A DNA stretch of 64,000 nt from the NCBI RefSeq assembly GCF_004010195.1, contig NC_057718.1, forward strand, positions 76,200,210-76,264,209, read 5' to 3'. The position numbers and the translations under genes are program-made. Positions 1-60,067 of the stretch are shown here, piece after piece (the stretch's first letter is position 1; each line of letters starts with the position of its first letter). Source of the stretch: Chiloscyllium plagiosum. Its lineage: Eukaryota. The notes under the pieces were generated by a model. The model saw only the letters and a list, made by a program, of their open reading frames with translations, did not search any database and had not been told where the DNA came from.

Positions 1-812
1 TTTCAAGCTGAATTCTATAAAGAATTTACAGGAATATTGGCTGGGAGAAAGTGAGGACTGCAGATACTGGAGACCAGAGCTGAAAAATGTGTTGCTGGAA
101 AAGCACAGCAGGTCAGGCAGCATCAAAGGAGCAGGAGAGTCGATGTTTTCTGAAGAAGGGCTTATGCCCGAAATGTCGATTCTCCTGCTCCTTGGATGCT
201 GCCTGACCTGCTGCGCTTTTCCAGGAATATTGGCTGGTCCACTTATGGACATGTATAACTATTCATACAGTCAGGGCTGTCTCCCGCCTTTACTGAAAGA
301 GGCGAATATCTCTCTTATCCTTAAAAAAGGAAAGGACCCAGAAGATTGCGCGTCATACAGACCAATATCCTTGCTGAATGTAGATTTTAAAATCCTCTCT
401 GAAACATTAGCATCAAGGCTAGAAAGGGTATTGCCACATATTATAAAGGAGGATCAGACGGGGTTTATTAAGGGCCGTAGATCATCCAATAATGTTAGAA
501 GGGTTTTGAATGTGATTCAAGCCTGCCATCAGGGAAAGATACCAGGAGTAGTAGTCTCATTAGACGTGGAAAAGGCAGTCGACAGGGTTCAATGGTCATA
601 TTTGTTTTACACATTGGAAAGGTTTGGCGTTGGAAAAAATTGTTTACCAAATGGGTCTCAACACTGTATAGTGATCCCAAGGCAGTTGTGATTACTAATG
701 GATATGGCTCGGATAGCTTCAGTGTGGATAGGGGCTGCCTTCAGGGATGTCCTCTCTCACCATTGCTATTTATGCTAATAATTGAACCACTAGCAGAAGC
801 TATACGGGCTGA
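1..812 (+). mobile_element. L1/Tx1-clade LINE ORF2 (reverse transcriptase) fragment, frameshifted and interrupted by a PLE-derived insert at 45-221
   Basis: Motifs YRPISLLNVDFKIL, DQTGFIKGR, SLDVEKAVDRVQW and QGCPLSPLLF lie in ORFs 89..691 and 592..840. Confidence 0.88.
45..221. mobile_element. Short fold-back Penelope-derived insert with a hammerhead motif at 150-177 (+)
   Basis: The two arms are reverse complements of each other. A 16-bp TSD caggaatattggctgg lies at 29-44 and 222-237. Confidence 0.85.
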
Positions 813-814
813 CT

Positions 815-1290
815 CTGGATCTATACTCGATGGAGTTTAGAAGGATATAGGGGGAAATCTAACTGAAACTTGCAGAATACTGAATGGCCTGGACAGAGTA
901 GATGTTGGGAAGATGTTTCCATTGGTAGGAGAGACTAGGACCCGAGGGCACAGCCTTAGAGTAAAGGGAAGGTCTTTTCTAACCGAGATAAAGAGAAACT
1001 TCTTCAGCCAGAGAGTGGTGGATCTCTGGAATTCATTGCCACAGAAGGCTGTGGAGGCCAGGTCAATGAGTATACTTAAGATGGAGATAGACAGGTTCTT
1101 GATTATCAAGAGGATCAAGGGTTATGGGGAAAAAGCAAGAGAATGAGGTTGAGAAACTTGCACATAAACAAAGAAATTGCAATGGTATTCAGCAGAATGC
1201 ATGTTTCATTAACTTCTTACTTCCCCAACGGCGGAGCCCACCTATTGGCTGAATGGCCTAATTTCTGTTTCTATGTCTTATGTTCGAATT
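815..1290 (+). mobile_element. CR1/HER1-type LINE 3' fragment
   Basis: TRGHSLRV...RNFFSQRVVDLWNSLP is the CR1 ORF2 C-terminal motif, followed by the 3' UTR. Confidence 0.85.
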
Positions 1291-1334
1291 TATTTGCCTT
1301 AGACAACATTAACCAAAGTTTATCAGATTGATTT

Positions 1335-1740
1335 TGGGGACAAGTGGGTTAAGTAGAATGGGCCTGTATTCTCTGGAGTTTAAAAGAATGAGAATATATT
1401 GGGATATATAAGGATTAGAAAACTGGATGCTAAGAGGCAGTTTTCCGAGGCTGGAACGCTTCAGCATAGGATATTGCCTGTTTCGGGCCAAAATGAAGAG
1501 AAATTTCTTTACTGAGAGGGTTGTGAATCTTTGGAACTCTTTACTCTAAAAAGCTGTGGATGTCCAGTTGAAGAAACTATTTAAGGCTGAGAGCATTAGA
1601 TTTTGGGTGCTAAGAAAATTAATGGATTGGCTGAAAAAGGAGAGTTGATACAGAAGTTCAACCCTGATTTTATTTAAGCGAAAAGCAGACATGATGTGCC
1701 ACACATGGGCTAATACTTCTAGCATTGCTCATATCCGTAT
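1335..1740 (+). mobile_element. Older CR1-type LINE 3' fragment
   Basis: Degenerate match to the same motif (aatttctttactgagagggttgtgaatctttggaactct). Confidence 0.7.
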
Positions 1741-2973: not shown

Positions 2974-3058
2974 AGAAGGGCTTATGCCCAAAACGTCGAT
3001 TCTCCTGTTCCCTGGATGCTGCCTGACCTGCTGCGCTTTTCCAGCAACACATTTTCAG
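2974..3058 (+). mobile_element. Short PLE-derived insert whose 5' end falls inside the hammerhead core
   Basis: Family consensus sequence with a 12-bp TSD ctcatgaataaa at 2962-2973 and 3059-3070. Confidence 0.82.
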
Positions 3059-3209
3059 CTCATGAATAAACAAAAACTTGTTTGATCGGTTTTTCTTTTA
3101 CCTAGAATTGCTAGCCCCAGTTCAGAAGTACCAATAGCTCAGTTTACAGTTTAAAGCACCAAACCAAAATTAAAAGAAGAAAATATGAAAATGAAAATTA
3201 AGCAAGTGT

Positions 3210-4488: not shown

Positions 4489-5119
4489 ACAGCGACCCTC
4501 TGAAGACCTGCACATTTTTGGACTGTAGGTGGTTACCAGTGCACCTGGAGGAAACCCATACAGACACACGAAGATATTTCACACATTTCTTATGACACAG
4601 ACCTCTGGTTTTCAGAAAACTGACTGAAAACTGCACAATGCTTCATTTACTTTTAAAACTTCACAAGGTGGCACAATCAGTCAGTGAGTCTGCACAAAGT
4701 GCACACCCCAGATTGCACTGATTAATCAGAACCCCAAAGTACTACAGGTGTTTTAAGCCCTTAAATCTAAAATGCATTTTTTGAAAGAGGTATGATACAA
4801 AGTGACTGCAGATGTAAATTCAGTGGTTAACTGGTGAAACCTGTGTGGGACTGATATTGTAACACTTTGGGGTGCCAAAGAAACTTTACAAAGATAGAGG
4901 GTGAAAATACCCTTCCCACTCCCTCGAGAAGAGAACCATCTCTGGCAGACATTTTCATGGTTTATCCTTCCAGAAAAAAGAAGAAGCCTGGACATAAGAA
5001 GAGGATGGAAGAACCAAGTTTTATCATTTCCTATTAAATCTCCATTTGTTTGCACCTAAACATCCATAAAACAATTTCATTAGTGGAAATGAACCACAGG
5101 AAAACTGCAACATGCTTAC

Positions 5120-5337
5120 CCCGCTGTCTTTAACCAATAGATTTCCTGCATGATGTTCCTCTTGGTTCTGTGTGAAAATAAGAAGCCTGCTATTTGCTTC
5201 AGAAAAAGAAATAGTGGCAAAGAAGTTTAGTATACTGCTCCTTTTGCCAATTTCAATTAAAATCCTTTCCAAAATATCAGCGGCTTGAGGATCCGGAAGA
5301 GCTTCAAAAATCAGAACAATGTACCGTTCATCAGTAG
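5120..5337 (-). CDS. SENP6: SENP6 coding exon, last confident exon in window (218 nt, phase 1 to 0): TTDERYIVLIFEALPDPQAADILERILIEIG...NFFATISFSEANSRL...KDSG
   Basis: Acceptor ctattttgcag and donor GGG|gtaagc. Matches EEQYIILIFQNGLDP...EIG...NFFAKIPFEEANGRL. Confidence 0.95.
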
Positions 5338-5599
5338 CTGCAAAATAGAACATACAAATCTTGGTCAATGTGCATATATATTAAAAAAGGTTACATTGGT
5401 GATCTTTAAGTGCGATTTATTTTCTGCATTATTGATGTTGTATTATGAAAGTAACGCAATGGATAATTTTCAAAAAGAACATGATAAATTGCTACACTGC
5501 AGGCCTGTTGAAGCAAGGTTTAAACATCGATAGGAAATTAGTTAATAAAACAACTGGTATTTGTATAGCATTGTTACAGGAATCTACACCAACACAATT

Positions 5600-6560
5600 G
5601 ACAGAGGCATGAGGAAAAGTAGAATGTGAGTGAAAATGGACGAAATTCACACAGACACTATGGATTTTTAAAGGCAAGATCAATTTTGATGAAACTGAGT
5701 TTTTTTAAAGGTACAAGTAATGGAGAAGGAAATGTATATGGATGGCTTTTATGTGGACCTCCAGAAGATATTTGATGAAGCCGCTCAAAAGCTTGGGTTT
5801 AAAGGCAAATTAGAGTCTGGATTGGGAAATTGCCTGAGAAGCAAACGATAGAGGGTGGTGAAGTGGTTGTGCTCTAATTGTACAATGTGATGAGGACAGA
5901 AATGCAACAAAACTGTGTTGCTGCCTCAATTATTCTCTGTATTTATTAATAACTTGAAATGACGAGAGAAAAACATATAACTAAGCTTTGCTGATGACAG
6001 AAAGAAAGGTTATATAGTGAGATTTTAGATGGAAGCATAAAATAAAGAGACATTAATGGATTTAGTCAATGGGGAAAATGGTAGATTTCAATGCATGTAA
6101 ATAAGAGGTTATTCATTTTGGAGCTGTAGAAGTTAAATAAGCATATTTTCTATACATTGAAAATTGAAAAGGTCCAAGATGACTTAGGAGTCCTTTTACA
6201 CAGATTATTAACATATGAACAGGTATAAAAAATAATCAAAAAAGCGCATGACCTTCAACTATAGAGGACTAGAATACAAATGATTCGAAAACCTGCCACG
6301 ACTTGAGTACTGCGTTCAGTTCGGACCACCACATCATAGAAAGGATGCACTGGCCTTGGAGGGGGTAAACTTTAGATTCACAGGACTGGACTCCAAGGGT
6401 TCACTTGTGACAAAGTCAGAAAATTAGGGCTGCACTCACTAGAATTTACAATATTAAAAGGGTGATTTCATTGATGTTTTCATGATATTAAGCAGAACTG
6501 AAGAGTAATGAGAGTGAACTTATTAAAATGGAGGGATGTTTAGAAACTGCCATCACAGTA
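5600..6560 (+). mobile_element. Highly decayed CR1-type LINE ORF2 relic
   Basis: Degenerate motifs tatgtggacctccagaag, tttgctgatgacagaaa (FADD) and ttgagtactgcgttcagttc. Confidence 0.65.
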
Positions 6561-8007
6561 AATGCAGTGGAGGAGAACATCACACGACATGAAGGATGGA
6601 GGTGAAAGACACAGGGAAATATTTAATTTAAGCTTGTCATAACTTAAATTTGATCAATCAATTGTTTTTCAGCATAGTTCTGATTATAAATGTTCATCTA
6701 ATCAGTGGAGAATGTTCATCTGTCAGGGAGGTCACAACATTAGTTAAGATAAATCACAGCCATGAGGAGTGATGATTTGTTAAAGCACTATCAAGAATGG
6801 TTGAAACAAGGAACAGAAGACAGATAACCAAACATTATGGAGTATGCTACAGAACCCCAGACAGAGTAAGATAGCCATTTGGGCAAGCCTCTGAGAAGTG
6901 CAGAAACAATAGGGCAGAAATAGCAGGGAGTTTTTAAATAATCGTTACTGGTATAGAAGGCACAGAATTCCTGAAATTGTTTCACGTGAACACTTTTAGC
7001 CAGTTTTCAGCAAGCCCAATAAGAAAATGAGCAAGTGAAAGGGGGATTTGTGGATAATAACTTCATGTTCGTGAACATAATTCAGTTAGATTTATTGTAT
7101 TTGTTGAAAAAAGCAAACATAAACCAAGAATCAATGTGCTTAATTGGAAAGGGCCAATTTTATTAATTGGAAATATCATTTGGCTAAAATGAATTGGAAA
7201 CAGCCCATCATATTTTCGAAAGAACATGGAGAAATGGATAAAATAGTAAAATGTGAAATAGTAGAATTAAAGGGAAAGGAAATATGACTAATTGGTAAAC
7301 TTTCAAAGAGCAAGACAGACATAATGGGTCATATTCATCCATGTTTCAACATGATGATATATGAAGAGATCAAGTTTTCAAATTTAATAGATGTAGAGAC
7401 AAGAAGAGCAACATAAGGAGGAGGGTATTCTATTTCTACAAAGTGGCTATTATTCTTCACTTAAAATATTGCTAACTGCTTTAGTTCAATAAAAACCTGT
7501 ACTAATGGAGTACTGTTAATGCAGTGAAACATTCCAAAGCATTTCATAGAAATGCCTTAAAACAAAAATGACATTAAGCCCCACAAGGAGATATTAGGGC
7601 AGATGAGAACATTCAAAGTGGCAGGTTTTAAGGCTCATTTTGAATGAAAAAAGTGGGATAGAGGGATGAAAGAGATGTAGGAATATAATCCAAGAGTTTA
7701 ACATGCAGACAGCTGATAGCACTGGTTTGGTAATAATGGGGATGAGTGAGGGGTCAGAATGAGAGATCAAACTTCCTCGGATTGTAGGTCACAAAACTGG
7801 ACTGACAGTATGGAAAGGTCATGGAGAAGAATGGGAATGTGAATATAAAATGATATATTGAAGAATCAGAAGTCAAAGTAGGTCAGCAACCAGTGGTAGT
7901 GGTTAAATTATTTAACACACAGTGACACATACACTTAAGTACAGTGATATTCACACAAAAGATCAAGTTATCAATTTAACTTTATTAATGCAATGGATTA
8001 TACTTAC

Positions 8008-8187
8008 TAGTCCCTTGAGAATCAAACCAGCTTTTCTCTTTGCTCATTTTGAGAGATGTTCGTATATTGTGGCAAGCAGCAGGTGTCATTTGCAGAAAAA
8101 GTACTGGTAGTACACGTGAACCACACCATTCACACATAGTGAATTCTGTGGCTTTGAAAACTACCTCCTGGGACGACTCTTTAGGTA
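8008..8187 (-). CDS. SENP6: SENP6 coding exon (180 nt, phase 1 to 1): VPKESSQEVVFKATEFTMCEWCGSRVLPVLFLQMTPAACHNIRTSLKMSKEKSWFDSQGT
   Basis: Acceptor ccttcctttgcag and donor CTA|gtaagt. Matches [21 protein letters not shown]...WNDCKG. It is absent from the supplied ORF track. Confidence 0.94.
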
Positions 8188-9322
8188 CTGCAAAGGAAGG
8201 ATAATTATATTCACTTTTTTGTACATGAAATAAATTTTATTACTGATTTGATTTAGTTTTAATAAAGAAACTACCAACAAATGGATAGAATTAATTCAAC
8301 AAGGAAGACATTTAAATTACATTCCAAATGTCAAGGAGCTCTCTGCTACATTAAATGATTTAACATTACTTCTCATTTGATTGGCCTCCAGCATAGCATT
8401 TCAGAAGTGTAATTTATTAGCAGTTTGGTTAACAGTTGGGTACCCACCCTCTGATGCTGCCTGACCTGCTGTACTTTTCCAGCACCACACTGTCTATCCA
8501 CTGCTCTTGTTAACGTAAATAAGCTCTAAGAGAATATGAATTCTTGAATCTTGCTGCTAATATCAATTTACAATATAAAAGGGTCTATAGGGAAGATTCC
8601 CACAAAGATGACAATTTAGCTGATACACAGCTCAATTGAGGAACTTAAATAAAAAGACTTTGTAAAGCTAGAAGTTAATAACTCGGTCAAATCAGCTAGT
8701 GTATACAAAGAACTGTAAGAAATTTTCCACAAAGGCTACGAACATAAATTAATTTACAACTGAGTTAATTATGAAATAGTTCCAAATAAAACAATGTTGG
8801 CAATTCTTCTTCTTCATGGTAACCATATCGATTGACAAGAGAAAAAGTAGCATTATGCTATATAAGAACAAAATTAGCAGAGTAGAAAGAATACAAAATC
8901 ACCAAATGGGAAATGAAAATTAGTTTTCATTACGCAGTAATTATTACTAAAAACACGTGCATATTTTGATCCATTTGGTCATGATTCTGCACATTTTACT
9001 TCAGGAATAAAATAAATTTTTCCTTTGCCAGCAAACGTATGTTTAATTATTTGAGAAGCGGATTACTAGTTTGATGCTGGACTGAAACAGTTAGGTTTCT
9101 TTCCTCTGCAGTCTTTGTGGACGTGAAGAAACATCAATGTCAAGATGGAGGTTAAAACCTAAAAACTCTCCAAAAGGTGCTTCTATTAAGGAAATAGTTT
9201 TAAACAACTGTTTCCCCATTCCAACTCTATTTTCATCTCAAATTGATATGGAGGCTGTACTTTCGGATTTCAGTTTTACAGTCCGTTGATTCGCAGTTTA
9301 GAAATTGATTGAATAGACTTAC

Positions 9323-9356
9323 CTCCCATGCTGACCTTGATGAAGTCGAGGCTGAA
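9323..9356 (-). CDS. SENP6: SENP6 34-nt exon (phase 0 to 1): FSLDFIKVSMG
   Basis: Acceptor cttctactttcag and donor GAG|gtaagt. Matches FCLDFIKIQLD. Confidence 0.92.
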
Positions 9357-9620
9357 CTGAAAGTAGAAGAATTTGTTTTTAGTGTTTGCAAATCCAACAA
9401 CTTCAGCTGTTAAACAGCATCAATAAAAAAGATTGAACAAAATTACAACATATTTCAACCTAACATCACATCAATAAATCTTCACTTTTCTTCAAACAAA
9501 ACCTCAATCTAAATTAAATTCAAATTGGTTTGCTGCATACTTTAGGTGACACTTCAGAATTAGAAATTTACAGCAATGTTTCCATCTCCAACATGTGAAG
9601 GTGCCGCTGTAGGACTGGAG

Positions 9621-9775
9621 TGGACCAAGTTAAAAATCACATATCATCAGGTCATAGTCCAACAGGTTTCTTTGAAAGGACTAACTAGTTACTTGATGGA
9701 GCAGCGCTATGAAAGCTAGTACTTCCAAATAAACCTGTTGTTCTATAACCTGGTGTCATGTGATTTCTAACTTTG
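9621..9775. mobile_element. Second short fold-back family (resumes at 10480-10483), host of the 9776-10464 insert
   Basis: tggaccaagttaaaaatcac...ccaacaggttt is the reverse complement of aaacctgttg...gtgatttctaactttg(tcca). A central remnant ttgatggagcagcgctatgaaagcta resembles a hammerhead. Confidence 0.65.
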
Positions 9776-10464
9776 CGAAAGTGAGGACTGCAGATGCTGG
9801 AGATTAGAGTCAAGATTAGAATGGTGCTGGAAATACACAACAGGTCAGGCAGCATCCGAGGAGCAGGAAAATCGATGTTTCGGGCAGGAGCCTTTCATCA
9901 GGTATGAGGCTAGAAGCCTTGGGGTGGAGAGATAAATGGGAGGGGGCGGGCTGGGGAGAAGGAAGCTGGGAGTGCAATAGGCGGGTGGAGGAAGGGGTAA
10001 AAGTGATAGGTCGGAGAGGAGGGTGGAGCAGATAGGTGGGAAGGAAGATTGACAGGTGGGACAGGTCATGAGGATGGTACTGAGCTGGAAGTTGGGAACT
10101 GGGGTAAGGTGGGGGGAGGGGAAATGAGGAAACTGGTGAAGTCCACATTGATACCATGGAGTTGAAGAGTTCCGAGGCAGAAGGTGAGGCGTTCATCAAA
10201 CTTCCAGCTCAGCACCATCCTCATGACCTGTCCCACCTGTCAATCTTCCTTCCCACCTATCCGCTCCACCCACCTCTCCGACCTATCACCTTTACCCCTT
10301 CCTCCATCCACCTATTGCACTCCAGCTACCTTCTTCCCAGCCCCACCTCCTCCCATTTATCTTTCCAGCCTCATTCCTAATGAAGGGCTCCTGCCCGAAA
10401 CTTCGATTTTCCTACTCCTCAGATGGTGCGTAACCTGCTGTGCATTTTCAGCCCACTCTAATTC
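9776..10464. mobile_element. Penelope-like pseudo-LTR insert in inverted (fold-back) arrangement
   Basis: About 9810-10095 is the reverse complement of about 10198-10464. A 15-bp TSD tgatttctaactttg lies at 9761-9775 and 10465-10479. Hammerhead-like motifs sit at 9874-9901 (-) and about 10377-10404 (+). Confidence 0.88.
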
Positions 10465-11119
10465 TGATTTCTAACTTTGTCCATCTCCAACAAGCATTGC
10501 AACAGGATTTTCCATTACTAAAAGTGTAGCTACTGATCACCATGAGCATTCCGACATGCCACTATACGGAGTCGTAGAAGGCCAAGTGTTCCAAGATTTT
10601 TGATGGCTCTCTGCATGGTTCCACCTTAGTTACTCTTCACATCATAGATTAAATTTGCAATTTGAATGTTTTTGTCTTGGACTTTTGCTTTTAGATAGTG
10701 CCACCTCTTAGTTTCATGGTTCTCCTCTATTCTCCACACACACTCACTTTCTGGGCTGGCTCAACCCCTCTCGTCCCATTTTCTCCAGAAATGTGTTTTT
10801 AACTAGCTCTGGACTATTCACATATTCCTCTTGATCCCTCTCAATCATACACCCTTCATAAAGTGGAGCTCAACTCAAAATTTGCTGCCTGAATGCTAAC
10901 TCTCACTAATCTCATTTAATCATGACTCCTAATCTGCACTACTGATTTTACAGTTCTCAATACACGTTAAAATCCTTGATGATCTTTCTGTTTACTAACT
11001 CATAACCTCCACCAACCCTACAATCCAATAAGATTTTGAAATTCTGATCTCTTGTATATCTCTTGTTGTAATCACTAACATGTGTCTTCAAATGCCAAAG
11101 TCAAGCTCTGGAATTTCTA

Positions 11120-12287: not shown

Positions 12288-12649
12288 ATCCCATCAATTT
12301 GTAAGATTATTTTTAAATCAACCATTTATCCATATATCTTGGAGAAGACACTCTCCAAGACTATTCCCCTGTTGTGGAGTCCATGTTTTTGATGCAACAA
12401 ACTGTCAAATAGTTGAAAACCAAAAAACAAACAAGCAGACTCAAAGGTATCCAGCCAAGATGATTTTTTTCAAGTAAAAGCTTCATGCAATTATTCTATG
12501 GGTTTATAAGGAAAAGTAACTCCAGGAATGCGACAAGTGTAATTAACTTCGAGAGAGATAAATCATACTCTAAGAAATGTTGAGGTAGTTCTCTCTTGCC
12601 CATTGCAGGAAAAATCCTGATATATATTCTCCTACTTCCAGTGGCTGAG

Positions 12650-37851: not shown

Positions 37852-37869
37852 TTTCTTATGTCTAGTGAA

Positions 37870-49000: not shown

Positions 49001-49020
49001 CTATACCATTGCATTCAAGT

Positions 49021-49140
49021 CCTGAAGAAGGGTTACACCCAAAATGTTAATTTCTCCATCTCCTGATGCTGCCTGACTTGCCTTGTTCTTCCAACCTCCT
49101 ACTTGTCTCCCTTGGATTCCAGCATCTGCAGTTTTTTTGT
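49021..49140 (+). mobile_element. Diverged PLE-derived short insert starting at a degenerate hammerhead
   Basis: cctgaagaagggttacacccaaaatgtt...gatgctgcctgac...ccagcatctgcag. Confidence 0.65.
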
Positions 49141-49819
49141 TTTGTTTTTTTTGGTCAAGGGATCAATGCAGTGCAATAAAGTATACAGGACAGCACAACA
49201 AGAGCAGCACCAGGAATGAAAGTGTCAACCTGGTAAAGCTACAACTCAGGACCATTTGGATACCATACAGTAGAACAACATGCAATAAGCACAGCTAAAC
49301 GATCCCACAACCAGTGGATCAGATAAAGCTCTGATTTCTGCTACTTCCAGCTGTGAACGGTAGTGAGTGATTAAACAACAATCAATAGGAGCAAACTCCA
49401 CTAATATATGTCTATCTACAATGATAGGGGAGTCTAGCACAACAATATAAAAGACAGGGCTGAAATATTTGCAGCCAGAAGTGCTAATTGGATGTTCTGA
49501 CCCAGCCTCCTCCCAAGAACCCCAGGATCACAGATGCCAGTCTTCTACCAATGCTATTCATCACATGATATCAACAAACTGCTGACAACAGTATGGCAGT
49601 ATGGTAGCATGACAGAATCCATGCTCCAAAGTGAAATGAATCCCGAACTAAGCTGTTGCGTATTGTTACAACAATTGAAAATACCTATTTGGAAAAATTG
49701 CCCAAACATGTCCTATCCACAAATGCACGACAAATCAAACTAGTGCTAAACCAGTTATTCATTAAGCAAAATAACAAAGTGCCATTGACAGTGTCACCAA
49801 ATTATACATAACAATTACA

Positions 49820-51780
49820 TGAACCTTGGATGACCAGGGATGTTATGACTTTGGTTAAAAAAAAGGAAGCATACACAAGGTCTGGGAGGATGGGAACTGA
49901 CGAAGCCCTTGAAGTATATAAGGTAAGTAGCGAACTTAAGCAAAGATTTAGAAGGGCTAAAAGGGGTCATGAAAAGTCATTAGCAAACAGGATTAAGGAG
50001 AATCCAAAGGCTATTTATACAGACATAACAAGCAAGAGGGTAGCCAGGGAAAGGGTTGGCCCAATCAAGGATGAGGGAGTGAATCAATGGGCGTAGTCAG
50101 AAGAGGGAGGTGAAGTCCTAAACAAATACTCTGTCAGTATTCACCAAAGAGAAGGAATTGGTGAAGGATGATCTCAGGGAAGGGAGTGTCAAGTTTCAAA
50201 TCCAAGTTGCTACTAAAAAGGAAGCAGTGTTGTTAGTCTTAAAAAGTATTAAGATAGATAAGTCTCCGGGTCCTGATGGGATCTATCCCAGGATATTGAG
50301 GAAGGGAAAAGAACAAATTGTTGTAGCATTGACAGGCATCTTTGAATCCTCTTTGGCCACAGGTGAGATTCCTGAGGACTACAGGATAGAAAATGTTGCC
50401 CCATTATTTAAGGGTAACAAGGATAGTCCTGGAAAATGACAGATCTGTGAGCCTCACGTCAGTGATAGGAAAATTATTAGAAAAGATTCTCAGGGACAAG
50501 ATCAATATGCATTTAGAAGTAAATGGACTTATTAGTGATAGACAGCCTGGTTTTGTGTGGGGAGGTTATGCTTCAGTAACCTGATCAAGTTTCTTGAGGA
50601 GGGCATGAAGATGATTGATGAGGGAAAGTGGTTGATGTTGTCTACATGGACTTCAGTAAAGCCTTTGACAAAGTCCCTCATGGCAGACTGGTACAAAATA
50701 TGAAGTCACTTAGTTTCGGGGTAAGTTGGCAAGACAGACACAGAACTGGCTTAATCATAGGAGACAGAGGGTAACAGTGGAAGGATACTTTTTGAAATGG
50801 AGGGTCGTGACTAGTGGTGCTCCACAGGGATAAGTGCTGGGGCCTCTGCTGCTCGTGATCTACATAAATGATATTTGGAGGAAAATGTAGCTGGTCTAAT
50901 TAGTACGTTTGCTGACAATACAAAGATTGATGGTATTACAGTTATTGAGGAGATTGTCAGAGGATATAGCATGATATAATCAATTGGAAGATTGGGCAGA
51001 AAAATGGCAGATGGAGTTTGATCTAGACAAACATGAAGTGATGCATTTAGGAAGGTCAAGTACAGATGGAAATTATACAGTGAATGGCAGAATTCTCAGG
51101 AGTATTGATATACAGAGGGATCTGGGTGCGCAGGTCTACAGATCTGCAGGTGGATAAGGCTGCAAGGAGTATTGTGAATAAGGACAGACAAGATTTCCTG
51201 CAGCTTTATAGAACTTTAGTTAGGCCACACATAGAATACTGCATACAGTTCTAGTCACCACACAACCAGAAGAATGTGGAATCTTTGGAGAGAGTACACA
51301 AAAGGTTTACAAGGTTGCTGCCTGGTATGGAGGATTTTAGCTATGAAGAAAGGTCGAATAGACTTGGTTTGGTTTCACTGGAACGCAGGAGGTTGAGGAG
51401 TGACCTGATAGAAGTTCATAAGATTGTGAAGGGCATGAATAGAATGGAAAGTAGGAGGCTTTTCCCCCAGGATGGAGGAGTCAATTATTAGAGGTCACAT
51501 GTTCAAGGTGCAGGATGGAAGGGAGGAATTTAAAAGATATGTGAGGCATGTTTTTCACACAAAGGGTGGTAAGTGCCTGGAACACACTGCCACAGGTGGT
51601 GATGGAAGTAGACACAACAACAGCATTCAAGAAACACATGGATGAATACATAAATAGGAAGGGAATAGAGGGATACAGATTCTGTAAGTGAAGACAGTTT
51701 TAGTACGGAAAGGCAAAATGTGTGAGCGCAGGCTTGGAGGGCCGAAGGACCTGTTCCTGTGCTGTATTGTCTTTTGTTCT
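49820..51780 (+). mobile_element. CR1/HER1-type LINE, about 2-kb decayed copy
   Basis: Motifs IKENPK, KSPGPDGIYPRIL, SLTSVIGKLLEKI, tttgctgacaatac and LERVHKRFTRLLPG, plus the 3' UTR. Confidence 0.92.
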
Positions 51781-51989
51781 AATTAACACACTGATATCAT
51801 TTCCTTACTTCTCCATTATGAATCCCTTACTGTCATCCAAACAGACCAATGCTTACTTTAGCTTTCTTTTTATAGACTACCACAAGCTTTTGCTGTCTGT
51901 TTTTATATTCTTTGCCAGTTTCCTCTAATATTCTCCCTTATATTTGTTTTATTCATCCATTACTGATCTCTGAAAATTTTCCAATCTTC

Positions 51990-52170
51990 TCCTCCTCAAT
52001 AACCGCATCATCAATCTTTGTATAGTCAGCAAATTTACTAATTAGACCAACTAGATTTTTCTCCAAGTCATCTATGTAGATCACGAGCAGCAGAGGTCCC
52101 AGCACTTATCCCTCTGGAGCACCACCAGTCACAACCCTCCACTCTGAAAAGCATCCTTCCACCTCTGCAG
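51990..52170 (-). mobile_element. CR1 internal fragment, inverted copy of about 50770-50950
   Basis: Reverse-complement match to the neighbouring CR1 RT segment. Confidence 0.75.
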
Positions 52171-52682
52171 TACTGTAAACCTTTTCTTGAAATTTAACAC
52201 CATTGTAAACTTACTGAATTAGCTGTGGACGGCAAAGTTTTCTCACAGATTAATTCCATAAGAAAAGATTTTGCTAATAATGACGAATTCTCTTCAAGTG
52301 TCAGACAACACTTCTTTACCATTCTATCTTTTACCTTATTTTCCCAGCCACGCTAGCCAAAATTACATTTTTGTAATTGCTTCAATTTAAAACTCTAGTG
52401 TTAGATGCATATTTTTCACCCTCCAACTGTATATCAAAATTCAAGATCTTGCCTTAAGGACCCTTCACTAAAAGGTAGTTAAATAATCCAGTCTCATTAC
52501 ATATTTCAAGAAACTGTCCTGAATACATGCTTATGAACTTGTCCTCCAGACTACCTTTATAAATTTGATTGGTCCAACTTTATTAAGTGGAATAGTGCAG
52601 GTTTGTACAAGCAGGTTGGCATTAATGTCTGATGTCAAGAGAATGGAAGGAGCTCTACCATGCACGCATACATGGTACATCT

Positions 52683-52930
52683 GAGTCGAAAAGCGTAACC
52701 CTGGAAAAGCACAGCAGGTCAGGCAACATCCAAGAAACAGGAGAGTCAACGTTTAGGGCATAAGCCCTTCATTAGGAATGCGTTGGGGAGAGTGCTGAGA
52801 CCAAAACAAAAGGAGGGTGGGGGTATGGGGTGAAGGTAGCTGGGTCTCCACCAACACATTCATTTGATTGGTGGAAGTGGTCCTCACTCTCAACAACTTC
52901 TCCTTCGAATCCTCCCACTTTCTTCAGACC
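52683..52930. mobile_element. PLE chimera: minus-strand pseudo-LTR joined to a plus-strand Penelope RT fragment
   Basis: gtggtcctcactctcaacaacttctccttc (VVLTLNNFSF) matches about 56860-56910. Confidence 0.72.
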
Positions 52931-53440
52931 TGTACCCTCCATGACATATGAGCCTAAAGTACTTAATGGTATCAAAAGATGGAAAATGCACTGCTATTTT
53001 TCATCTTAATGTGCATTAAAAAAGTGAGCAAGTAGGTTCTGAATCGCAGTGCTACATTTTTTGTTGTGCATTCTTCACTGTTCAGCTTTCAGATTCAGAA
53101 CTCTACTTTAAGAGACACCTCTCACTCTGCTTCACTTTAGAATCAGTTAATAATCAATTGACATTGAAGTTCTGATCATTACCAATAGTTTGAAATTAAT
53201 AAACAATCAAACTTGTTTTACAATTTGGGATACAAAGTGTGAGTGATAAACACCAGCAATGAAAATAGCACATTTATCTAATTTTAGGTTGACGACATTT
53301 ATAGCAACTGCTTGAAGGTCATTACACTTAGTAATTACACTTAGTATGACACAACATTCCTGACGAGCCTAAGCCATATAGCTAAATATGCAGAACTCAA
53401 TATTTCAAATACAGCAATCAAGACAAATACCATTCTTTAG

Positions 53441-53988
53441 AAGAAAGTGAGGACTGCAGATGCTTGAATTCAGAGTCAAGAGTGTCGTGCTGGAAAGGCA
53501 CAGCAGATAAGGCAGCATCTGAGGAACAGGAGAATCAACGTTTCGGGCATAAGCCCTTCATCAGGAATGAGGCTAGTGGATTGGGGTGTTGAGAGATAAA
53601 TGGGAGGAGTTTGGGCTAGGTTTGGGGGGTGGGGTGAAAGAGGGGGGAAGGTAGCTGAGAGTGTGATAGGTAGATGAAGGTGGGGGAGAAAGTGATACGT
53701 CGGAGAGGAGGGTGGCATGGATAGATGGGAAGGATGATGGACAGGTCAAGAGGGTGGTGCCGAGTTGGAAGATTGGGACTGGGGTAAGGTGGAGAAAGGG
53801 GAAATGGGGAATCTGGTGAAATCCACATTGATCCCATGTGGTTGCAGTATTCCAAGGCAGAGGATGAGGCATTCTTCCTCCAGGCGTTGGGTGGTTAGGG
53901 TTGGCGATGGAGGAGGCAGAGGACCTGCATGTCCTTGGTGGAGTGGGGTTAATTGGTGCGGGTGCCTCAATGTGAGTGTCTCTGAAAC
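53441..53988 (-). mobile_element. 5'-truncated Penelope-like element (end of ORF plus pseudo-LTR), with a hammerhead motif at 53537-53564
   Basis: ORF end QRLEEECLILCLGILQPHGINVDF. A 15-bp TSD aataccattctttag lies at 53426-53440 and 53989-54003. The core reads CUGAUGA-A-GGGC-UUAU-GCCC-GAAAC-GUU. Confidence 0.88.
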
Positions 53989-54959
53989 AATACCATTCTT
54001 TAGTCTTGGAATACCAACAATAGGAAGAAATTTGTTCTTGTCATATAACAAAGGATAATTTTACAAGGGGGAATTGCCACTCCATTCCTTTTGTGTGTGT
54101 AAAGAAAGGTCACCACAATTCTGACAGAAGATTCCAATTAGAGTTCCTTCAGAAAGCCAAAGCAATTTTAATTCTTACTTGTGCATTGCAGTGCAGGATA
54201 TGTGGGGAAAGTAGCTGCCATATTCTCAGTGTTAAACGACTAGTATCACAGGCTACTTCTGTGAAATGGTAAGCATGTAAGGCAAGATAGAGATTAGGGT
54301 GCCAGTGCCAAAGAGCAGAAGTAGGACAAGTAGATGATGGAGTGTTTCAGGCATGTCCGGGTATACAGAGAATATTAGGTTATTAGGGAATGGGATGCAG
54401 TGTGGTGATCTTCAGTCCCAGGTGGAAAATAGTGGTTGGTATGAGGGAGTAGGGAGCATTGTAGTTGTTCAGCCCTGAGGGAAATGGGGAATGTAGTTCA
54501 GGATCCAGAGGTTGTAAGGGGTGTGTAAGAAGCCATGATCATTTTGAATCTTGGGATAGGCTTAATGGGCTGAATAGCCTGTTTCTGCTCCTTTGTTCTC
54601 ATGTTCTTAATTTGACTTGTCAGTTTATTAATTATCCAGGTGTTAGACTGGGTTTTTAATAATCTAATCTGTCCTGAGTAACTGTTTAATTAATTGCAGA
54701 ACACTCCAAGTTCTCCAATTTAACTGGAAATTCAATGAGCACAATCGAATTGCTCATTGGAATCTTCAATTCCCAGGGAGTCTTCTATGTCTGGGAGTCT
54801 GCAGGGTCTTGATGCACAACTCTCATTTACGCTGCAGAAAGAATTGCCCGGCCATTGGAAAACTCCGGCTAATATTTTTTAGGATTTTGAATCAGATAGT
54901 TAAAACTCCAAAACGGTCCAATGAATTAGCAATTGAACACGAAAAAAGAGCAGAACTAC

Positions 54960-55118
54960 CTTTGTGCTGCTGTTTTTACAACTGATTGGGCATTGGCATG
55001 ATGAAACCGCCTTCCACGGACCACAATTCCTGGAGGTGAAGGACCACTAATTACGAAGTATTTGTTCCGATTTTTTTCAATCTCCTTGTTTGATACAAGT
55101 TGGGAGGTCACAGTTTCA
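54960..55118 (-). CDS. SENP6: SENP6 coding exon (159 nt, phase 2 to 2): ETVTSQLVSNKEIEKNRNKYFVISGPSPPGIVVRGRRFHHANAQSVVKTAAQ
   Basis: Acceptor cttttctatttacag and donor AAG|gtagtt. Matches the SENP6 motif [25 protein letters not shown]. Confidence 0.93.
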
Positions 55119-55319
55119 CTGTAAATAGAAAAGTGTTGGCATTTAAATATAGAAAAATGCCATTCTAATTATCTACTGACAAGTAGAGACATCAGCAATT
55201 TGGAGATGAGAAGGGACAGAGTTTGAAATATCATGCAAACTTTCAAGCAGATGATCACAAGACTGACCGTGCTAAATAAGAAGGTGATAAACTTGCACGA
55301 CCTATTTTACAATTAAGTG

Positions 55320-55616
55320 GGAGAAATCCAGGACTGCAGATGCTGGAGATTAGAGTCGAGAGTGTGGTGATGGAAAAGCACAGCAGGTCAGGCAGCATCT
55401 GAGGAGCAGGAGAATCGACATTTCGGGCAAAAGCCCTGCATAAGAGATTAGCATGTAAAATTAATTTGGTGAAGTGTACTGACATGGATCGAGAACTGGC
55501 TGGCAGACAGGAAACCTAGTCTTTCCTGATGAAGGGTTTTTGCCCAAAACATCTATTCTCCTGCTCCTTGGATGCTGCCTGACCTGCTGTGCTTTTCCAA
55601 CACCACACTCTTGACT
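55320..55616. mobile_element. Fold-back PLE-derived insert with an about 80-bp CR1 fragment between the arms
   Basis: Inverted arms at about 55320-55443 and 55525-55616, with the flank ctattttacaa duplicated at 55302-55312 and 55617-55627. Confidence 0.8.
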
Positions 55617-57312
55617 CTATTTTACAAGTTAAGTTGATCAAAGCCAACACTGTTTGCAGCCTCTAGGTCAAAGCAGTAGAACTGCATGCTGTTTTACAAA
55701 TCTCAATGTTTTAAGTCAGTCAATATATCCCATGCAGGTATACATTTAAAACTTTCTAGTAAAAACAAAGCAGTGGAGGCCCATATTTTTCTAGCTATGT
55801 TTGTTTTATCTTAATCCTGCATTTTGAACAACGTTAGGAATTTGACATTTGGTGTATGTTCCTTCAATTGTTTCCATGCATCCAGTGAAGTGGACCTCAC
55901 CACAACTTTGTTAAACTTTTAGTCATTAAGCACAGTATCTGCACCTGAATTCTTAAAATACACGATCAGTATAAAGATGCATGTTGTGTCCACAGAGCAT
56001 AAATAATGCTTTATGAGAAAGGCCATTTAATCATACAAAAATAGAAAACAGGATTGGCCATTCACTCCTTTGAGCTTGTTCTGCCATTGATTATGACCAA
56101 GGCTGATCAGCCAGCTCAATAGCCTGTTCCTGCTTTTCTTCCATATCCTTTCATCCCTTTAGCTCCAAGTACTGCATCCAACTTCTTCTTGAAATCATAC
56201 AATATTTTGGCCTTGACTGCTTTCTATGGTAGCCAATCACCATAGACATCACTGTGTGAAGAAATTTCCCATTTTGGTCCTAAATGGTATACCCTGAGTC
56301 CTTATACTGTAACCCCTGGTTCTGGACTCCCACGCCATCAGGAACACCCTTCCTGCATTTACCCTAACTCGTCCTGTCAGAACTTTATAGGTTTCTAGGA
56401 GATATTCCCCCCACCTCCCAATTCTTCTGAACTCCAGTGAATACAATTCTTACCAATTCAATCTTTCTTATACATGTCAGTCCCGCCATCCCAGCAATCA
56501 GTCTAATCAAACCTTTGCTACATCCTTTTTACAGCAAGAGCATTTTTCCTCAGATAAAGAGAACAAAACTATACATAATATTCCAGGTGTGGTCTCACCA
56601 AGGCCCTGTATAATTGCAGCAAGACATCTCTGTTCCTGTACTTGAATCTTCTCATTATGAAGCTAACATACCAACTGCTTCCTTACTTACTTACCTTTAG
56701 CAAATGGTGAACAAGGACACCCTGGACTCACTGCACATTCCCCTCTCTCAATTTATAACCATTCAGATTTGTCCACATCATATGTACCGCTCCGCTTCTT
56801 CCTTTCCCGCCGTACCAACCAGTACCCTTCCACTGACACCCTCCTTCAACTGACTGAACTGGTCCTCACCCTGAACAACTTCTCTTTCCAATCCTCCCAC
56901 TTCCTCCAAACGAAAGGAGCAGCCATGGGCACCCGCATGGGCCCCAGCTATGCCTGCCGCTTCGTAGGATATGTGGAACAATTCATCTTCCGCAACTACA
57001 CTGGCCCCAAACCCCACCTTTTCCTCCGCTACATCGATGACTGTATCAGGACTGTATCGGCGCTGCCTCGTGCTCCCACGAGGAGGTTGAACAGTTCATC
57101 CACTTCACCAACACCTTCCACCCCGACCTCAAATTCACCTGGACAGTCCCAGATTCCTCCCTCCCCTTCCTCGACCTATCTATTTCTACCTCAGGCGACC
57201 GAATCAACACGGACATCTACTACAAACCAACCGACTCCCACAGCTACCTGGACTACACCTCCCCCCACCCTGCCCCCTGTAAAAACGCCATCCCATATTC
57301 CCAATTCCTTCG

Positions 57313-57956
57313 NNNNNNNNNNNNNNNNNNNNNNNNNNNNNNNNNNNNNNNNNNNNNNNNNNNNNNNNNNNNNNNNNNNNNNNNNNNNNNNNNNNNNNNN
57401 NNNNNNNNNNNNNNNNNNNNNNNNNNNNNNNNNNNNNNNNNNNNNNNNNNNNNNNNNNNNNNNNNNNNNNNNNNNNNNNNNNNNNNNNNNNNNNNNNNNN
57501 NNNNNNNNNNNNNNNNNNNNNNNNNNNNNNNNNNNNNNNNNNNNNNNNNNNNNNNNNNNNNNNNNNNNNNNNNNNNNNNNNNNNNNNNNNNNNNNNNNNN
57601 NNNNNNNNNNNNNNNNNNNNNNNNNNNNNNNNNNNNNNNNNNNNNNNNNNNNNNNNNNNNNNNNNNNNNNNNNNNNNNNNNNNNNNNNNNNNNNNNNNNN
57701 NNNNNNNNNNNNNNNNNNNNNNNNNNNNNNNNNNNNNNNNNNNNNNNNNNNNNNNNNNNNNNNNNNNNNNNNNNNNNNNNNNNNNNNNNNNNNNNNNNNN
57801 NNNNNNNNNNNNNNNNNNNNNNNNNNNNNNNNNNNNNNNNNNNNNNNNNNNNNNNNNNNNNNNNNNNNNNNNNNNNNNNNNNNNNNNNNNNNNNNNNNNN
57901 NNNNNNNNNNNNNNNNNNNNNNNNNNNNNNNNNNNNNNNNNNNNNNNNNNNNNNNN
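57313..57956. other. Assembly gap (644 N)
   Basis: Run of N characters. Confidence 1.
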
Positions 57957-58079
57957 CACCCCAGTCTGACCTATCACCTTCACCTTGACGTCTTTCCACC
58001 TATCACATTTCCGCCCCCCTCCCCCAAGTCCCTCCTCCCTACCTTTTATCTTAGCCTGCTGGACAAACTTTCCTCATTC

Positions 58080-58107
58080 CTGAAGAAGGGCTTATGCCCG
58101 AAACGTC
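58080..58107 (+). ncRNA. Minimal type I hammerhead ribozyme motif in the Penelope pseudo-LTR
   Basis: CUGAAGA-A-GGGC-UUAU-GCCC-GAAAC-GUC, with predicted cleavage after 58107. Confidence 0.75.
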
Positions 58108-60067
58108 GATTCTCCTGTTCCCTGGATGCTGCCTGACCTGCTGCGCTTTTCTAGCAATACATTTTCAGCTCTGATCTCCAGCATCTGCAGACCTCACTTT
58201 CTCCTCATATGTACATTTGCCTACTCAACTCATCCAATTCAACCTCCTCACAGCTCACTCTCCCACTTTGCTTTGAATCAACTGCAAATTTGGGGATATT
58301 ACATTTAGTTCTCTCATACAAACCATTAATATAAATTCTGAATAGCTGAGCTCATAGCACTGATCCCTGTAGTACTCCACTCGTCACTGTCTGCCATTTA
58401 GGAAAAGGACCATTTATTCTTACTCTTGGTTTCACGTCTGCCAGCCAGTTCTCTATTCATGTCAGTACAGTACACCAAATTCCATGCACTTTAATTTTCC
58501 ATGCTAATCTCTTACGTGGGGCTTTGTCCAAACACCCAAATGAACCAAATTCTCTCATCAATTCTACTTGTTACATCCTCAAAGAGCTCCTGCAGATTCA
58601 TCAAGCATGCTTTCCCTTTGGTAAATCAATGCTGACTCTATCCAATCCTGCAGCTGTTTTCCAATTATTCAGTTATTAATTATTTTATAATGGTCAATAG
58701 CATCTTCCCCACTGCTGACATCAGGATGACTGGTCTATAATTCCCAGTTTTCCCTCTGCCTCTCTTCTTGAACAGAGGGGTTACATTAGCTAATCTTCAA
58801 TCTGTAAGAACTGCTCTTGAGTCTGAGGAATCTTCGAAGATGATCATCAGTGCATCCAGTATTTCTAGGGTCATTTCCTCAATTATTCTGGGATGTAGAT
58901 TATCAGGGCCTGGGGATTCATTGGCCTTCAATCCCATAAATTTCCCCATCATTACTTCCAGACTATTGATTTCCTTGTGTAACTTCCCTCTTACTATAAT
59001 CTGCATTCCCCAATATTTCTGATGTGTTGCATCTTCCTAAGTTAATACAGAACCAAAGTATGTATTTAGCTTGTCAGCCATTTTTTGTTCCCCATTATAA
59101 ATTCTCTTGCTTCTGATTAAGGAACATACATTGTTGAAGATAAATCTTTTTCTCTTTGTATACCTGTAAAAGCTAACTGAAAAAGTTTATGCTCCCTACA
59201 AGTTCCTTCTCTATAATTTGATGCAGTCACAATTGGATTATTTTGAAAATTCTACGTACTAAATTCCCATGGGACATTATATTATGCATGCTCAACAAGT
59301 TGCATTAAACATGCACATGCATGAGTACAAATAAAAGCCACAGCCCTCTTGGTAGCACTCAAGTAAACCGCTACGTTTAGAAATACACACTTGCTGCAGA
59401 AGTGTATTAAAAATGCCTCCCAATAGCAGAATAGTCAGTAAACAAATGACAATGAAAAATAAATATAGAAAAAGCAAGCTCATTTGTGGAGAGGACAAGA
59501 GTTTCAACAGACTGTTACTTTCTCTTAGACACTGCCAACCTGCTGAGCATTTCCAGAATTCTTTTTCATTTCAGAATTTGCAGTATGTTGCTATTGTTAC
59601 AGAGATTTAGGTTGATTAACATAAGGTCAGAGACACCATTAGGAAACTTTCCTTTATGGTGAGTTACCATGATCTGAAATGCACTGCCTGAAAGAAGATA
59701 AAATAGTAATTTTCAAAAATGCATTGGAAAAATACTTAAAAAGGGAAACAATACAGAGGTATACGAAAATAGTCAGTGACTTGAATCATTAGTTTGCTCA
59801 ATCAAAAACCTGGCAAAGGCACATTGTGCTGCATGAAATTGGCTTCTAAGTTGTACAAAATCTTTGTTAGAAAGGCCAGAATGCAATCTTTGTTAGAAAG
59901 ACCACAAAAATCATTAATTTAGCTTGTCATATACCTTAACATCCTGAATCAATGCAACAGCACAAACAGGTTTTGAATGCAAACAAAAAACACTGATTAG
60001 AGAGCCTACAGAAAATATTGCTCATCTGAAATGCTTGAATTTAAATGAGTTTATAAATTTAACAGAC

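Follow-up and report, generated by a model that had tools for sequence, protein, structure and literature searches.

Short hammerhead-bearing inserts in the SENP6 introns of a bamboo shark as copied end modules of Neptune-type Penelope-like elements

The stretch of DNA analysed here, referred to as the window, comprises 64,000 nucleotides of the genome of Chiloscyllium plagiosum, and the gene SENP6 lies on its minus strand. A sequence-only reading of this DNA had noticed about 15 copies of a short unit scattered through the SENP6 introns. BLAST within this single 64-kb window confirms the repeat at all 17 of the coordinates that had been given, and since five of these loci are inverted (head-to-head) pairs (44/147, 9777/10369, 11119/11212, 37725/37826 and 55320/55520), the 17 loci hold 22 arms, together making up 3.6% of the window bases. 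No arm overlaps any of the 11 mapped exons of the bamboo shark SENP6. Relative to the SENP6 transcript, 12 arms are sense and 10 antisense, as are four and two, respectively, of the six motifs that pass a strict hammerhead descriptor; selection against cutting of the pre-mRNA is therefore not apparent at these small numbers. A search of a protein atlas with a SENP6 exon gave no usable match. The features are given below, where PLE stands for Penelope-like element and positions within a unit are counted from the C of CUGA as 0.

5114..60216, minus strand: SENP6, the host gene, with 11 exons mapped (residues 62-667)
44..148, minus strand: inverted-pair arm, full tail, 5' end at +21
147..226, plus strand: partner arm, start about -3, without tail, hammerhead descriptor passed; the pair 44-226 is flanked by a 20-bp target-site duplication with 1 mismatch
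2974..3061, plus strand: solo unit, start +3 (CUG absent), end at the first 3' site; 12-bp duplication
8448..8491, plus strand: short fragment without hammerhead; no duplication above chance
9777..10197, minus strand: long arm with endonuclease C-terminus, 3' UTR, hammerhead (9901) and full tail
10199..10462, plus strand: partner arm with 3' UTR and decayed hammerhead (10377), without tail; the pair is flanked by a 15-bp duplication
11119..11214, minus strand: inverted-pair arm, start about -3, hammerhead motif intact by the descriptor, without tail
11212..11330, plus strand: partner arm, start +2, full tail; the pair has a 14-bp duplication
15745..15832, minus strand: solo unit, start about +5, without tail; 14-bp duplication, 1 mismatch
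16768..16897, minus strand: solo unit, start about -7, descriptor passed, full tail; duplication score within chance
19758..19849, plus strand: solo unit, start 0, without tail
22576..22712, minus strand: solo copy belonging to the ...cattgtttttacc variant, with intact hammerhead motif and full tail; 15-bp duplication
37725..37828, minus strand: inverted arm, full tail, 5' end at +20
37826..37851, plus strand: 5' half of a hammerhead (-3 to +22) at the head of an old PLE body
38039..40460, plus strand: near full-length, decayed reading frame of a Neptune-type PLE with many stops and frameshifts (DKG, RT, linker remnant, GIY-YIG remnant)
39159..39290, minus strand: solo unit within the RT region of the old PLE, start +1; 9-bp duplication
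45912..46002, minus strand: solo fragment of the ...cattgtttttacc variant, start +37, without hammerhead; 8-bp duplication, borderline
49020..49140, plus strand: divergent variant, start -2; stem II GGGU-UAC-ACCC by eye
52683..52843, minus strand: arm with about 63 nt of 3' UTR and decayed hammerhead, without tail
52841..52930, plus strand: RT fragment, inverted, that adjoins the preceding arm at the 5' end of the latter
53439..53960, minus strand: long copy with endonuclease C-terminus, 3' UTR, hammerhead (53564) and full tail, without RT
55320..55444, minus strand: inverted-pair arm, full tail, 5' end about +7
55445..55519, plus strand: foreign retroelement RT sequence of about 75 bp between two arms, 78% identical to 58425-58525; CR1-like by a motif
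55520..55618, plus strand: partner arm, start about -4, without tail; the pair is flanked by a 13-bp duplication with 1 mismatch
56788..58205, plus strand: young, 5'-truncated PLE with RT (56790-57313), N gap (57313-57956), 3' UTR and unit
58074..58080, plus strand: TCATTCC, initiator-like by the consensus YYANWYY; the A at 58076 (-4) is a shared 5' landing site genome-wide
58076..58111, plus strand: minimal type I hammerhead motif, predicted cut after 58107
58115..58190, plus strand: predicted second stem (58115-58131 with 58179-58190), near-invariant across variants
58172..58205, plus strand: optional 34-nt tail between two 3' end sites

The units represent inserted copies of the module, hammerhead plus tail, that forms the end of Neptune-type PLEs. 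With homologues as queries, tblastn locates an N-terminus, RT and endonuclease, in that order, at 38039-40460. RT sequence occurs in the window at 56790-57313, 38.0-39.8 kb and 52841-52930, and one piece of RT shares 84-87% identity with Chiloscyllium punctatum proteins. The assignment to Neptune is by the linker: a CX2-5CXXC linker between RT and endonuclease is present in 16 of the 22 homologues that extend to the endonuclease, and the window copy retains its remnant RKRCKT. The old PLE at 37.8-40.5 kb also keeps the endonuclease remnant CGLLYIG, has half a hammerhead at its head and ends 3' without a unit. In a Stegostoma homologue (P0024) the reading frame continues into the same hammerhead frame. 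Pfam returned nothing above cut-off for five window reading frames, and only RVT_1 at E 0.1 for fragments. The Penelope origin that the sequence-only reading had proposed is thus borne out by RT identity, endonuclease, linker, tail, inverted pairs and duplications. It had further taken the unit for the 3' pseudo-LTR of two RT-coding elements, which is correct for 56788-58204, an element interrupted by a 644-base N gap whose continuity is therefore judged from the 10-bp duplication that flanks it; at 53441-53988 only the last ~30 endonuclease residues and the 3' UTR match, and RT is absent.

The copies bear the marks of insertion. Target-site duplications scored at least 9 at 9 of the 17 loci, a score that was reached by 1 of the 300 random pairs used for comparison, and in all four duplication-bounded pairs the tail is on one arm and absent from the other. 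At their 3' ends, 12 arms extend into the tail or past it, nine stop at or before the first site and one is cut at +22. Some 34 nt separate the two 3' end sites, which correspond to the known PLE tail, and loose 3' ends genome-wide fall at 58204-58206, that is 117-119 nt from the start of stem II. Where at least two 3'-end subfamilies had been proposed, several variants indeed exist, by eye about five rather than two. Endonuclease-positive PLEs such as Neptune are likewise described with 5' truncation, an adjacent inverted copy, a 30-40 bp tail at one end, duplications around the whole unit and solo pLTRs, and a rotifer pLTR carries an initiator-like TCACT comparable to the TCATTC seen here (Craig et al., 2021, PMC8557442; Arkhipova et al., 2013, PMC3846280). 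Unlike the inserts described in those studies, most inserts here consist of the last 95-130 nt with a common 5' edge, and whereas the rotifer solo pLTRs are attributed partly to recombination or deletion, the shark units have duplications of their own.

The motif at the head of the unit is the already described minimal type I hammerhead of PLEs, a predicted ribozyme. As in the PLE hammerheads surveyed by Cervera and De la Pena (2014, PMC4209133), it combines the CUGANGA core and GAAA box with an extra nucleotide 9/10.1, the closing pair G10.1-C11.1, a palindromic minimal helix III and a short helix I; the survey also describes mostly single dispersed motifs, some opposite-strand pairs, and copies numbering thousands in each genome for fish and frogs. 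Helix II has 4 bp here versus 7-8 bp in the schistosome families (PMC4209133). In the copy at 58076..58111 a weak stem I is followed by CUGAAGA, an extra A, GGGC-UUAU-GCCC and GAAA-CG-UC, and helix I has four pairs with a U-U mismatch, which a variant making up ~6-10% in three runs converts to U-A. The strict descriptor is passed by 6 of the 22 arms (150+, 58080+, 53564-, 22702-, 16890- and 11211-), whereas 100 resampled sequences gave 0.27 passes on average and never more than 3. The recommended Rfam scan, run on the window at E up to 1, gave no hammerhead match and one chance scaRNA match. Folding models predict stem II only in the monomer, and intermolecular pairing around ACGU in a homodimer; dimer cleavage is reportedly the subject of a study by Lunse et al. 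2017. A scan of metagenome contigs with the unit pattern gave 0 matches; a 16-mer pattern matched 10 times in viral contigs, which was taken as chance.

The sequence-only reading overstated how many copies begin with the full CUGANGA-A-GGGC-N4-GCCC-GAAACGUC, which is complete in only 3 of 22 arms, most others carrying CpG-type changes or lacking the 5' part. Its description of a variable stem II loop was accurate, as all five loops it named (UUAU, UCGU, UUUU, UCAU and UCCU) are present, together with UUGU, UUCU and the 3-nt UAC. Differing cells in the hammerhead core number 9/37 at CpG and 2/161 at non-CpG positions, and 6/118 in stem II, 16/68 in loop II and 6/15 at N7. The low change in core and stem II and the high change in loop II support the idea of a constrained RNA structure, as one that would act at the level of the source elements. 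The covariation sought in stem II did not emerge: across 21 aligned arms, 0 of 7 pairs change on both sides, with stem II 94% paired, and one compensatory pair (U-A for C-G) appears only on re-reading the 49022 variant by eye. For the whole-unit fold, covariation was found in 1 of 23 predicted pairs. Within the overall explanation given below, we lean towards a hammerhead that selection maintains in source elements and that degenerates in inserted copies, and whose cleavage does not set the ends of the copies.

It is the shape of the copies that is informative. Thirteen of the 22 arms have their 5' end within -10..+7, the 18 nt around CUGA (P ~2e-9 under the most favourable exponential), as do 11 of the 17 loci (P ~1e-5); the ends are scattered over these 18 nt and a G precedes only some. 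None of the 22 arms begins at the predicted cut site (+28). Depth, loose ends and joints were further read from four public runs aligned to the 58-kb copy. A plateau of 136-143 at 58041-58064 is followed, from 58070 to 58084, by a step in depth of 4.1-fold in raw reads (from 135 up to 557) and of 8.5-, 8.4- and 12.6-fold in contigs, which is inflated by variants whose 3' UTR is unlike that of the reference copy. Raw-read depth still climbs from 557 at +4 to 800 at +20, so that many ends must lie inside the hammerhead, and shows no step at the cut site, 58108 (800 at 58100, 829 at 58110). A discrete short-unit peak is thus found rather than smooth truncation. Loose ends with mixed flanks fall at 58076 in three of the four runs (117 contigs, 98 reads and 27 contigs; agreement 0.33-0.36), with a final G in the consensus of two runs and T in one; run X14 has none at 58076 among the loose ends listed. 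Among the joints listed, those landing at 58074-58079 (6 of 69 rows) all have a G directly before the landing, which in five of the six is unexplained by the other arm. An extra G is known as a mark of capped full-length L1 inserts (PMC11702581). One raw-read RNA run, from poly(A) single-cell material, showed no pile-up of molecule starts that would mark a transcription start, and a search with an intron stretch listed no RNA data set containing it.

On balance, we consider the short units likely to be run-off cDNAs, made when the element's protein begins reverse transcription inside the first 130 bases of its own transcript and proceeds to the 5' end of that RNA; that most inserts start just before the hammerhead, and not at its predicted cut site, would then reflect this run-off. 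Transcription of the PLE would begin at, or close to, the A in TCATTC, which lies 4 nt ahead of CUGA. The internal RT start known in vitro for an anole PLE, if used at the module heading the transcript, would yield a product of 95-130 nt, and its use at the 3'-end copy of the module would give the longer truncated inserts. Both nicked strands may be primed, and two cDNAs joined via the 3-nt match TTC/GAA would form the palindromes. Much of this parallels PAc, the Poseidon element of Anolis carolinensis (Frangieh et al., 2024, PMC11167929), with the qualification that the in vitro data come from Poseidon and the window elements are Neptune: RT starts internally, about 111-118 nt beyond the beginning of stem II, the tail is bounded by two start sites, both strands are extended, a shorter template 5' end gives a shorter product, and hammerhead mutants still insert, cleavage being dispensable. 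PAc needs 172 nt of ORF, beyond the capacity of the tail, and solo units are probably dead on arrival. PAc belongs to another clade, and the main text of that study presents no genomic run-off inserts ending at a transcript start. In Penelope of Drosophila virilis, the hammerhead begins at the end of an intron and the start is located about 120 nt ahead of that point (PMC2377424, PMC4209133). Starting at the edge of the hammerhead is thus no general rule, which counts against the run-off reading. A fuller version, to which we give rather less credence, is that shark Neptune starts on its hammerhead, that priming at the head module gives a capped, 'strong-stop-like' cDNA of ~130 nt integrated alone or head to head, and that such by-products outnumber transpositions several-fold.

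It is unlikely that the units are instead SINE-like, with some 130-nt units serving as source genes that have an internal promoter at the initiator-like site and are recopied by the PLE protein. The short units do have a discrete length, a sharp 5' edge and insertion marks of their own, and in this the SINE-like label stands; an internal promoter is known in D. virilis Penelope (PMC2377424), and there are non-autonomous Chlamys PLEs (PMC8557442). The ...cattgtttttacc variant (two copies, paired with 94/99 support) and the 49022 variant also lack a long partner in the window, an absence not demonstrable for the genome from 64 kb. A separate lineage is not demonstrated: short copies have diagnostic letters in common with long ones and are intermixed with them in a tree of weak support, without a strongly supported branch (20 rows, ~107 columns), where long copies need 5 changes against a mean of 4.6 for shuffled labels. 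The anole protein, moreover, is reported to require ~55 nt past the start site (PMC11167929), which a solo unit lacks. No Rfam match to a SINE-type RNA polymerase III head (tRNA, 5S or 7SL) was found in the window, the head of the unit being the hammerhead.

We judge equally improbable a biased truncation, in which all copies come from the 3' module and synthesis stops or joins at the 5' edge of the hammerhead through structure, protein or microhomology. Strong 5' truncation is normal among PLEs (PMC8557442), TTC/GAA microhomology lies at -3..-1 at three pair junctions, two arms terminate at +20/+21, by the foot of stem II, and raw-read depth climbs further up to +20. However, the steepest rise lies upstream of the structure, which the polymerase would by then already have opened, and the mixed-flank ends on one base (58076) and the G preceding the listed joints also speak against it.

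Spread as a retrozyme, with the hammerhead cutting the unit from tandem transcripts for circularisation and reinsertion, is very improbable: despite the descent of animal retrozymes from PLE ends (Li et al., bioRxiv 10.64898/2026.07.22.740005) and head-to-tail joints from 58206 to 58075 in five contigs of run X1 and one of X14, none of the 22 arms in the window is tandem or starts at the cut site, depth there is nearly flat, and the four-pair helix I with its U-U mismatch and the minimal helix III are unlike canonical retrozyme hammerheads (PMC7229834). Animal non-LTR retrozymes share with the units a short, non-coding form, a type I hammerhead, kinship with PLE ends and dispersed monomers (PMC7229834; bioRxiv 10.64898/2026.07.22.740005). 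They are defined, though, by tandem repeats and circular RNA, whereas the shark units are solo or head-to-head, do not start at the cut site and fall below the mean of 363 bp given in the preprint for its one cartilaginous fish. With no cut-site starts, no tandems and no separation of the short copies, retrozyme-like spread is unsupported and a SINE is unneeded.

The kind of element and the ribozyme motif were already known; the copy shape adds something. The passages of the hammerhead survey on solo motifs call them 'probably related to truncated PLEs', report no 5' end peak and name no shark (PMC4209133), and a literature search, with subscription papers, Repbase and Dfam outside its scope, turned up neither a description of a 5' end peak nor one of PLE hammerheads in sharks. 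A sharp 5' edge before the hammerhead, with none at the cut site, provides a genomic argument that cleavage does not define the template. The copy shape also ties the internal start observed in vitro for PLEs to what is the most common insert of a vertebrate genome, and bears on where PLE transcripts start and why the hammerhead is retained. Should the run-off reading be true, the units would be a fossil record of the start site, the priming sites and two-strand priming in this retrotransposon class, and if the window is typical, its six descriptor-passing motifs per 64 kb would imply hundreds of thousands of hammerhead motifs in the shark. In annotating shark genomes, it would be prudent to file the stubs under the parent PLE, not as a new SINE, until source genes of their own are shown.

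Two further candidates were set aside. The downstream promoter element of D. virilis Penelope is RGACGTGY (PMC2377424); GAAACGUC resembles it, but is mismatched and 2 nt off the register. A 3' splice site as the source of the 5' edge was rejected for the reference variant, which has no AG before 58076, mixed-flank loose ends and no skip joint in RNA. Three long copies of other variants carry an AG 9 nt before CUGA.

The units are end modules of Neptune-type Penelope-like elements (PLEs) with a minimal hammerhead, a known kind. The reverse transcriptase (RT) piece at 57041-57310 has 416 protein matches, of which the best-scoring named proteins belong to Chiloscyllium, Rhincodon, Stegostoma and rays, and a CX2-5CXXC linker is found in 16 of the 22 homologues that extend to the endonuclease. 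A zinc-finger-like linker marks Neptune and Nematis, and the CX2-5CXXC formula is the one stated for Neptune (PMC8557442). The stretch 53441-53988, taken as RT-coding in the sequence-only reading, holds, of the PLE coding sequence, only an endonuclease end and is therefore not RT-coding.

PLE sequence in the window, from homologues mapped back
38039-40460, decayed near full-length PLE frame
56790-57313 and 52841-52930, PLE RT sequence
53889-53797 and 10197-10099, endonuclease end only

Two ray gene models, P0037 and P0055 (called kinase-domain protein and nicotinamide riboside kinase), contain the PLE RT piece at ~70% identity, through either misannotation or exon capture. In the old PLE at 37826-38404, the hammerhead core (CUGAUGA) contains an ATG that shares its frame with the conserved N-terminal PLE motif (225 codons from the upstream stop), but what follows stem II resembles the usual tail at only ~71%. 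Either the old element has its start codon within the hammerhead, like the anole element, or a young pair has inserted at its head.

The host gene is SENP6, matched at 99% identity to that of Chiloscyllium plagiosum by the exon 31118-30720, which makes a bamboo shark the most likely source of the window. Eleven exons (residues 62-667, two of them matching over just 10-11 residues) were mapped on the minus strand from 60216 to 5114, and no unit overlaps them. BLAST with two window copies as queries recovered the repeat at all 17 places reported earlier, as 22 arms. The unit covers 3.6% of window bases; a figure for the genome would have to be extrapolated from these 64 kb and presupposes that they are typical.

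The short-unit length peak, set earlier against smooth truncation, is real. Counting from the C of CUGA as 0 (58080 in the reference copy, 56788-58205), with ends set by eye, 13 of the 22 arms start between -10 and +7, four between +20 and +42, and five reach 63 to >1200 nt upstream. Since the best exponential puts at most 8% in this 18-nt span, which was picked after seeing the data, P is ~2e-9 for arms and ~1e-5 for loci (11/17). Beyond the window, four of the 24 listed public runs were compared with 57957-58316 at 90% likeness. Raw RNA reads, which we infer to be largely from intronic copies, have successive bin depths of 136, 143, 182, 576, 774 and 884 over 58041-58112. Their depth increases 4.1-fold from 58070 to 58084, and that of three contig sets, one of which comes from a second species, 8.5-, 8.4- and 12.6-fold, a step inflated by variants with a different 3' UTR. 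Among the rows listed, loose ends at 58076 (117 contigs, 98 reads and 27 contigs) have mixed flanks, with an agreement of 0.33-0.36 against 0.52-0.78 at the variant boundaries 58016 and 58169; the fourth run has no loose end at 58076 among its rows listed. Depth passes from 800 to 829 across the predicted cut (after 58107), and 3' ends accumulate at 58204-58206 among the rows listed. Searches of openly available article text turned up no description of this 5' peak or of these shark units. Thousands of mostly single minimal hammerheads per fish or frog genome, with some opposite-strand pairs, were reported in 2014 and ascribed to truncated PLEs (PMC4209133).

Flanking duplications of 9-20 bp, scoring at least 9, bound 9 of the 17 loci as against 1 of 300 random pairs (18 boundary sets tried, two for the 37.7 kb locus); one other locus is borderline at score 8, and seven have no duplication above chance. 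At five loci two arms stand head to head. Four of these pairs are bounded by a duplication, and in each the tail (the optional last ~34 nt, 58172-58205) is on one arm and the other arm ends ~34 nt or more earlier. Three pair junctions share a TTC/GAA overlap at -3 to -1. Inverted copies and a one-end tail are textbook PLE features (PMC8557442; PMC3846280). A short unit with a 9-bp duplication (39159-39290) lies inside the RT region of an older opposite-strand PLE. At 55445-55519, ~75 bp of another retroelement's RT, joined via AAAGCCC microhomology, stands between inverted arms within one target duplication and looks like a template switch during insertion. Joints in public contigs that jump back 34 nt (58207 to 58173, 58205 to 58171) look like duplicated tails.

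The best explanation of the peak is that copying runs off the 5' end of the transcript. Position 58076, where helix I begins, is occupied by the A of TCATTCC, a sequence that fits the initiator consensus YYANWYY. A CA initiator has been described (PMC6389100), and a rotifer pLTR has TCACT (PMC3846280). A G precedes the landing base in 6/6 listed joints at 58074-58079, one of them explained by an inverted arm and two possibly one event; in the window as a whole, 24% of bases other than C are G. Full-length L1 inserts copied from capped RNA are marked by an extra G (PMC11702581). For anole Poseidon on a pLTR-ORF template, reverse transcription begins 111-118 nt past the start of stem II, compared with 117-119 nt from stem II to the main 3' end here; shortening the template at its 5' end gives a shorter product, 172 nt of ORF are needed, extension occurs on both strands, and mutating the hammerhead leaves insertion normal (PMC11167929). 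The PLE transcript would start at -4; this and the 3' end distance would therefore place the priming site ~130 nt from the cap, and copying from there would yield exactly the short unit. Against a start at -4, the poly(A) RNA run shows no pile of molecule starts. D. virilis Penelope also speaks against it, as its start lies at 371 and its intron extends to 491, the point at which the hammerhead begins (PMC2377424; PMC4209133).

Short source genes, spreading in a SINE-like way, could possibly lie behind some units, because two variants have no long partner in the window. On a tree built from 20 arms (without 8448 and 37826, which are too short; no strongly supported branch) the five long copies, which reach into the 3' UTR or ORF, show no separation, needing 5 changes, as do shuffled labels. 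The retrozyme-like spread suggested earlier is highly improbable as an origin, since tandem units and circles are the defining features of retrozymes (PMC7229834; bioRxiv 10.64898/2026.07.22.740005), none of the 22 arms in the BLAST search is tandem, 0/22 start at the predicted cut site, and head-to-tail joints, though they exist, are rare (five contigs in X1 and one in X14, two of the public runs).

The hammerhead motif as first written is complete in only three arms. A strict descriptor of the minimal hammerhead is satisfied at six window sites, whereas 100 resampled sequences average 0.27; an Rfam scan of the window gave no hammerhead match. In an alignment of 21 arms, which omits the 26-bp one at 37826, differences occur in 2/161 non-CpG and 9/37 CpG cells of the core, 6/118 of stem II, 16/68 of loop II, 6/15 at N7 and 113/1019 downstream of the hammerhead. 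The Fisher P of 6e-6 for core versus downstream is too strong, because related copies are not independent. The alignment suggests selection acting on source elements, with neutral decay in copies. In the proposed check for stem II covariation, no pair in the aligned arms changes on both sides. In public data, the six variants among the rows listed for 58080-58111 fall at N7, three loop positions, the CpG G12 and one place that completes helix I. A T-to-A variant at 58110 replaces the helix I U-U mismatch by a U-A pair; its frequency is ~6-10% in three runs from one species but 0.1% in the second species. A second predicted stem at 58115-58190 (GAUGCUG with CAGCAUC, lengthened by CUG/CAG) is conserved across all variants, in 10-12 of 12 copies, shows no covariation, and is a candidate binding site for the element's protein.

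Other repeats share the window. An imperfect 147-bp palindrome at 9627-9773, 73% identical to its own reverse complement and unrelated in sequence to the main unit, includes a decayed hairpin followed by GAAAGCTAG, and may represent two head-to-head copies from a second PLE family with a hammerhead. Its last bases were duplicated by the insertion at 9776-10462. Many fragments of another RT-bearing repeat lie across 24205-63406, and the window has at least two other families of 300-430 bp.

Other repeats in the window
31194-32407, 41761-42461, 50402-51675 and 61964-63406, examples of the other RT-bearing repeat
815-1228, 3219-3654 and 24205-24600, repeat family of 300-430 bp
11966-12301, 17154-17507, 29027-29354 and 35182-35482, repeat family of 300-430 bp
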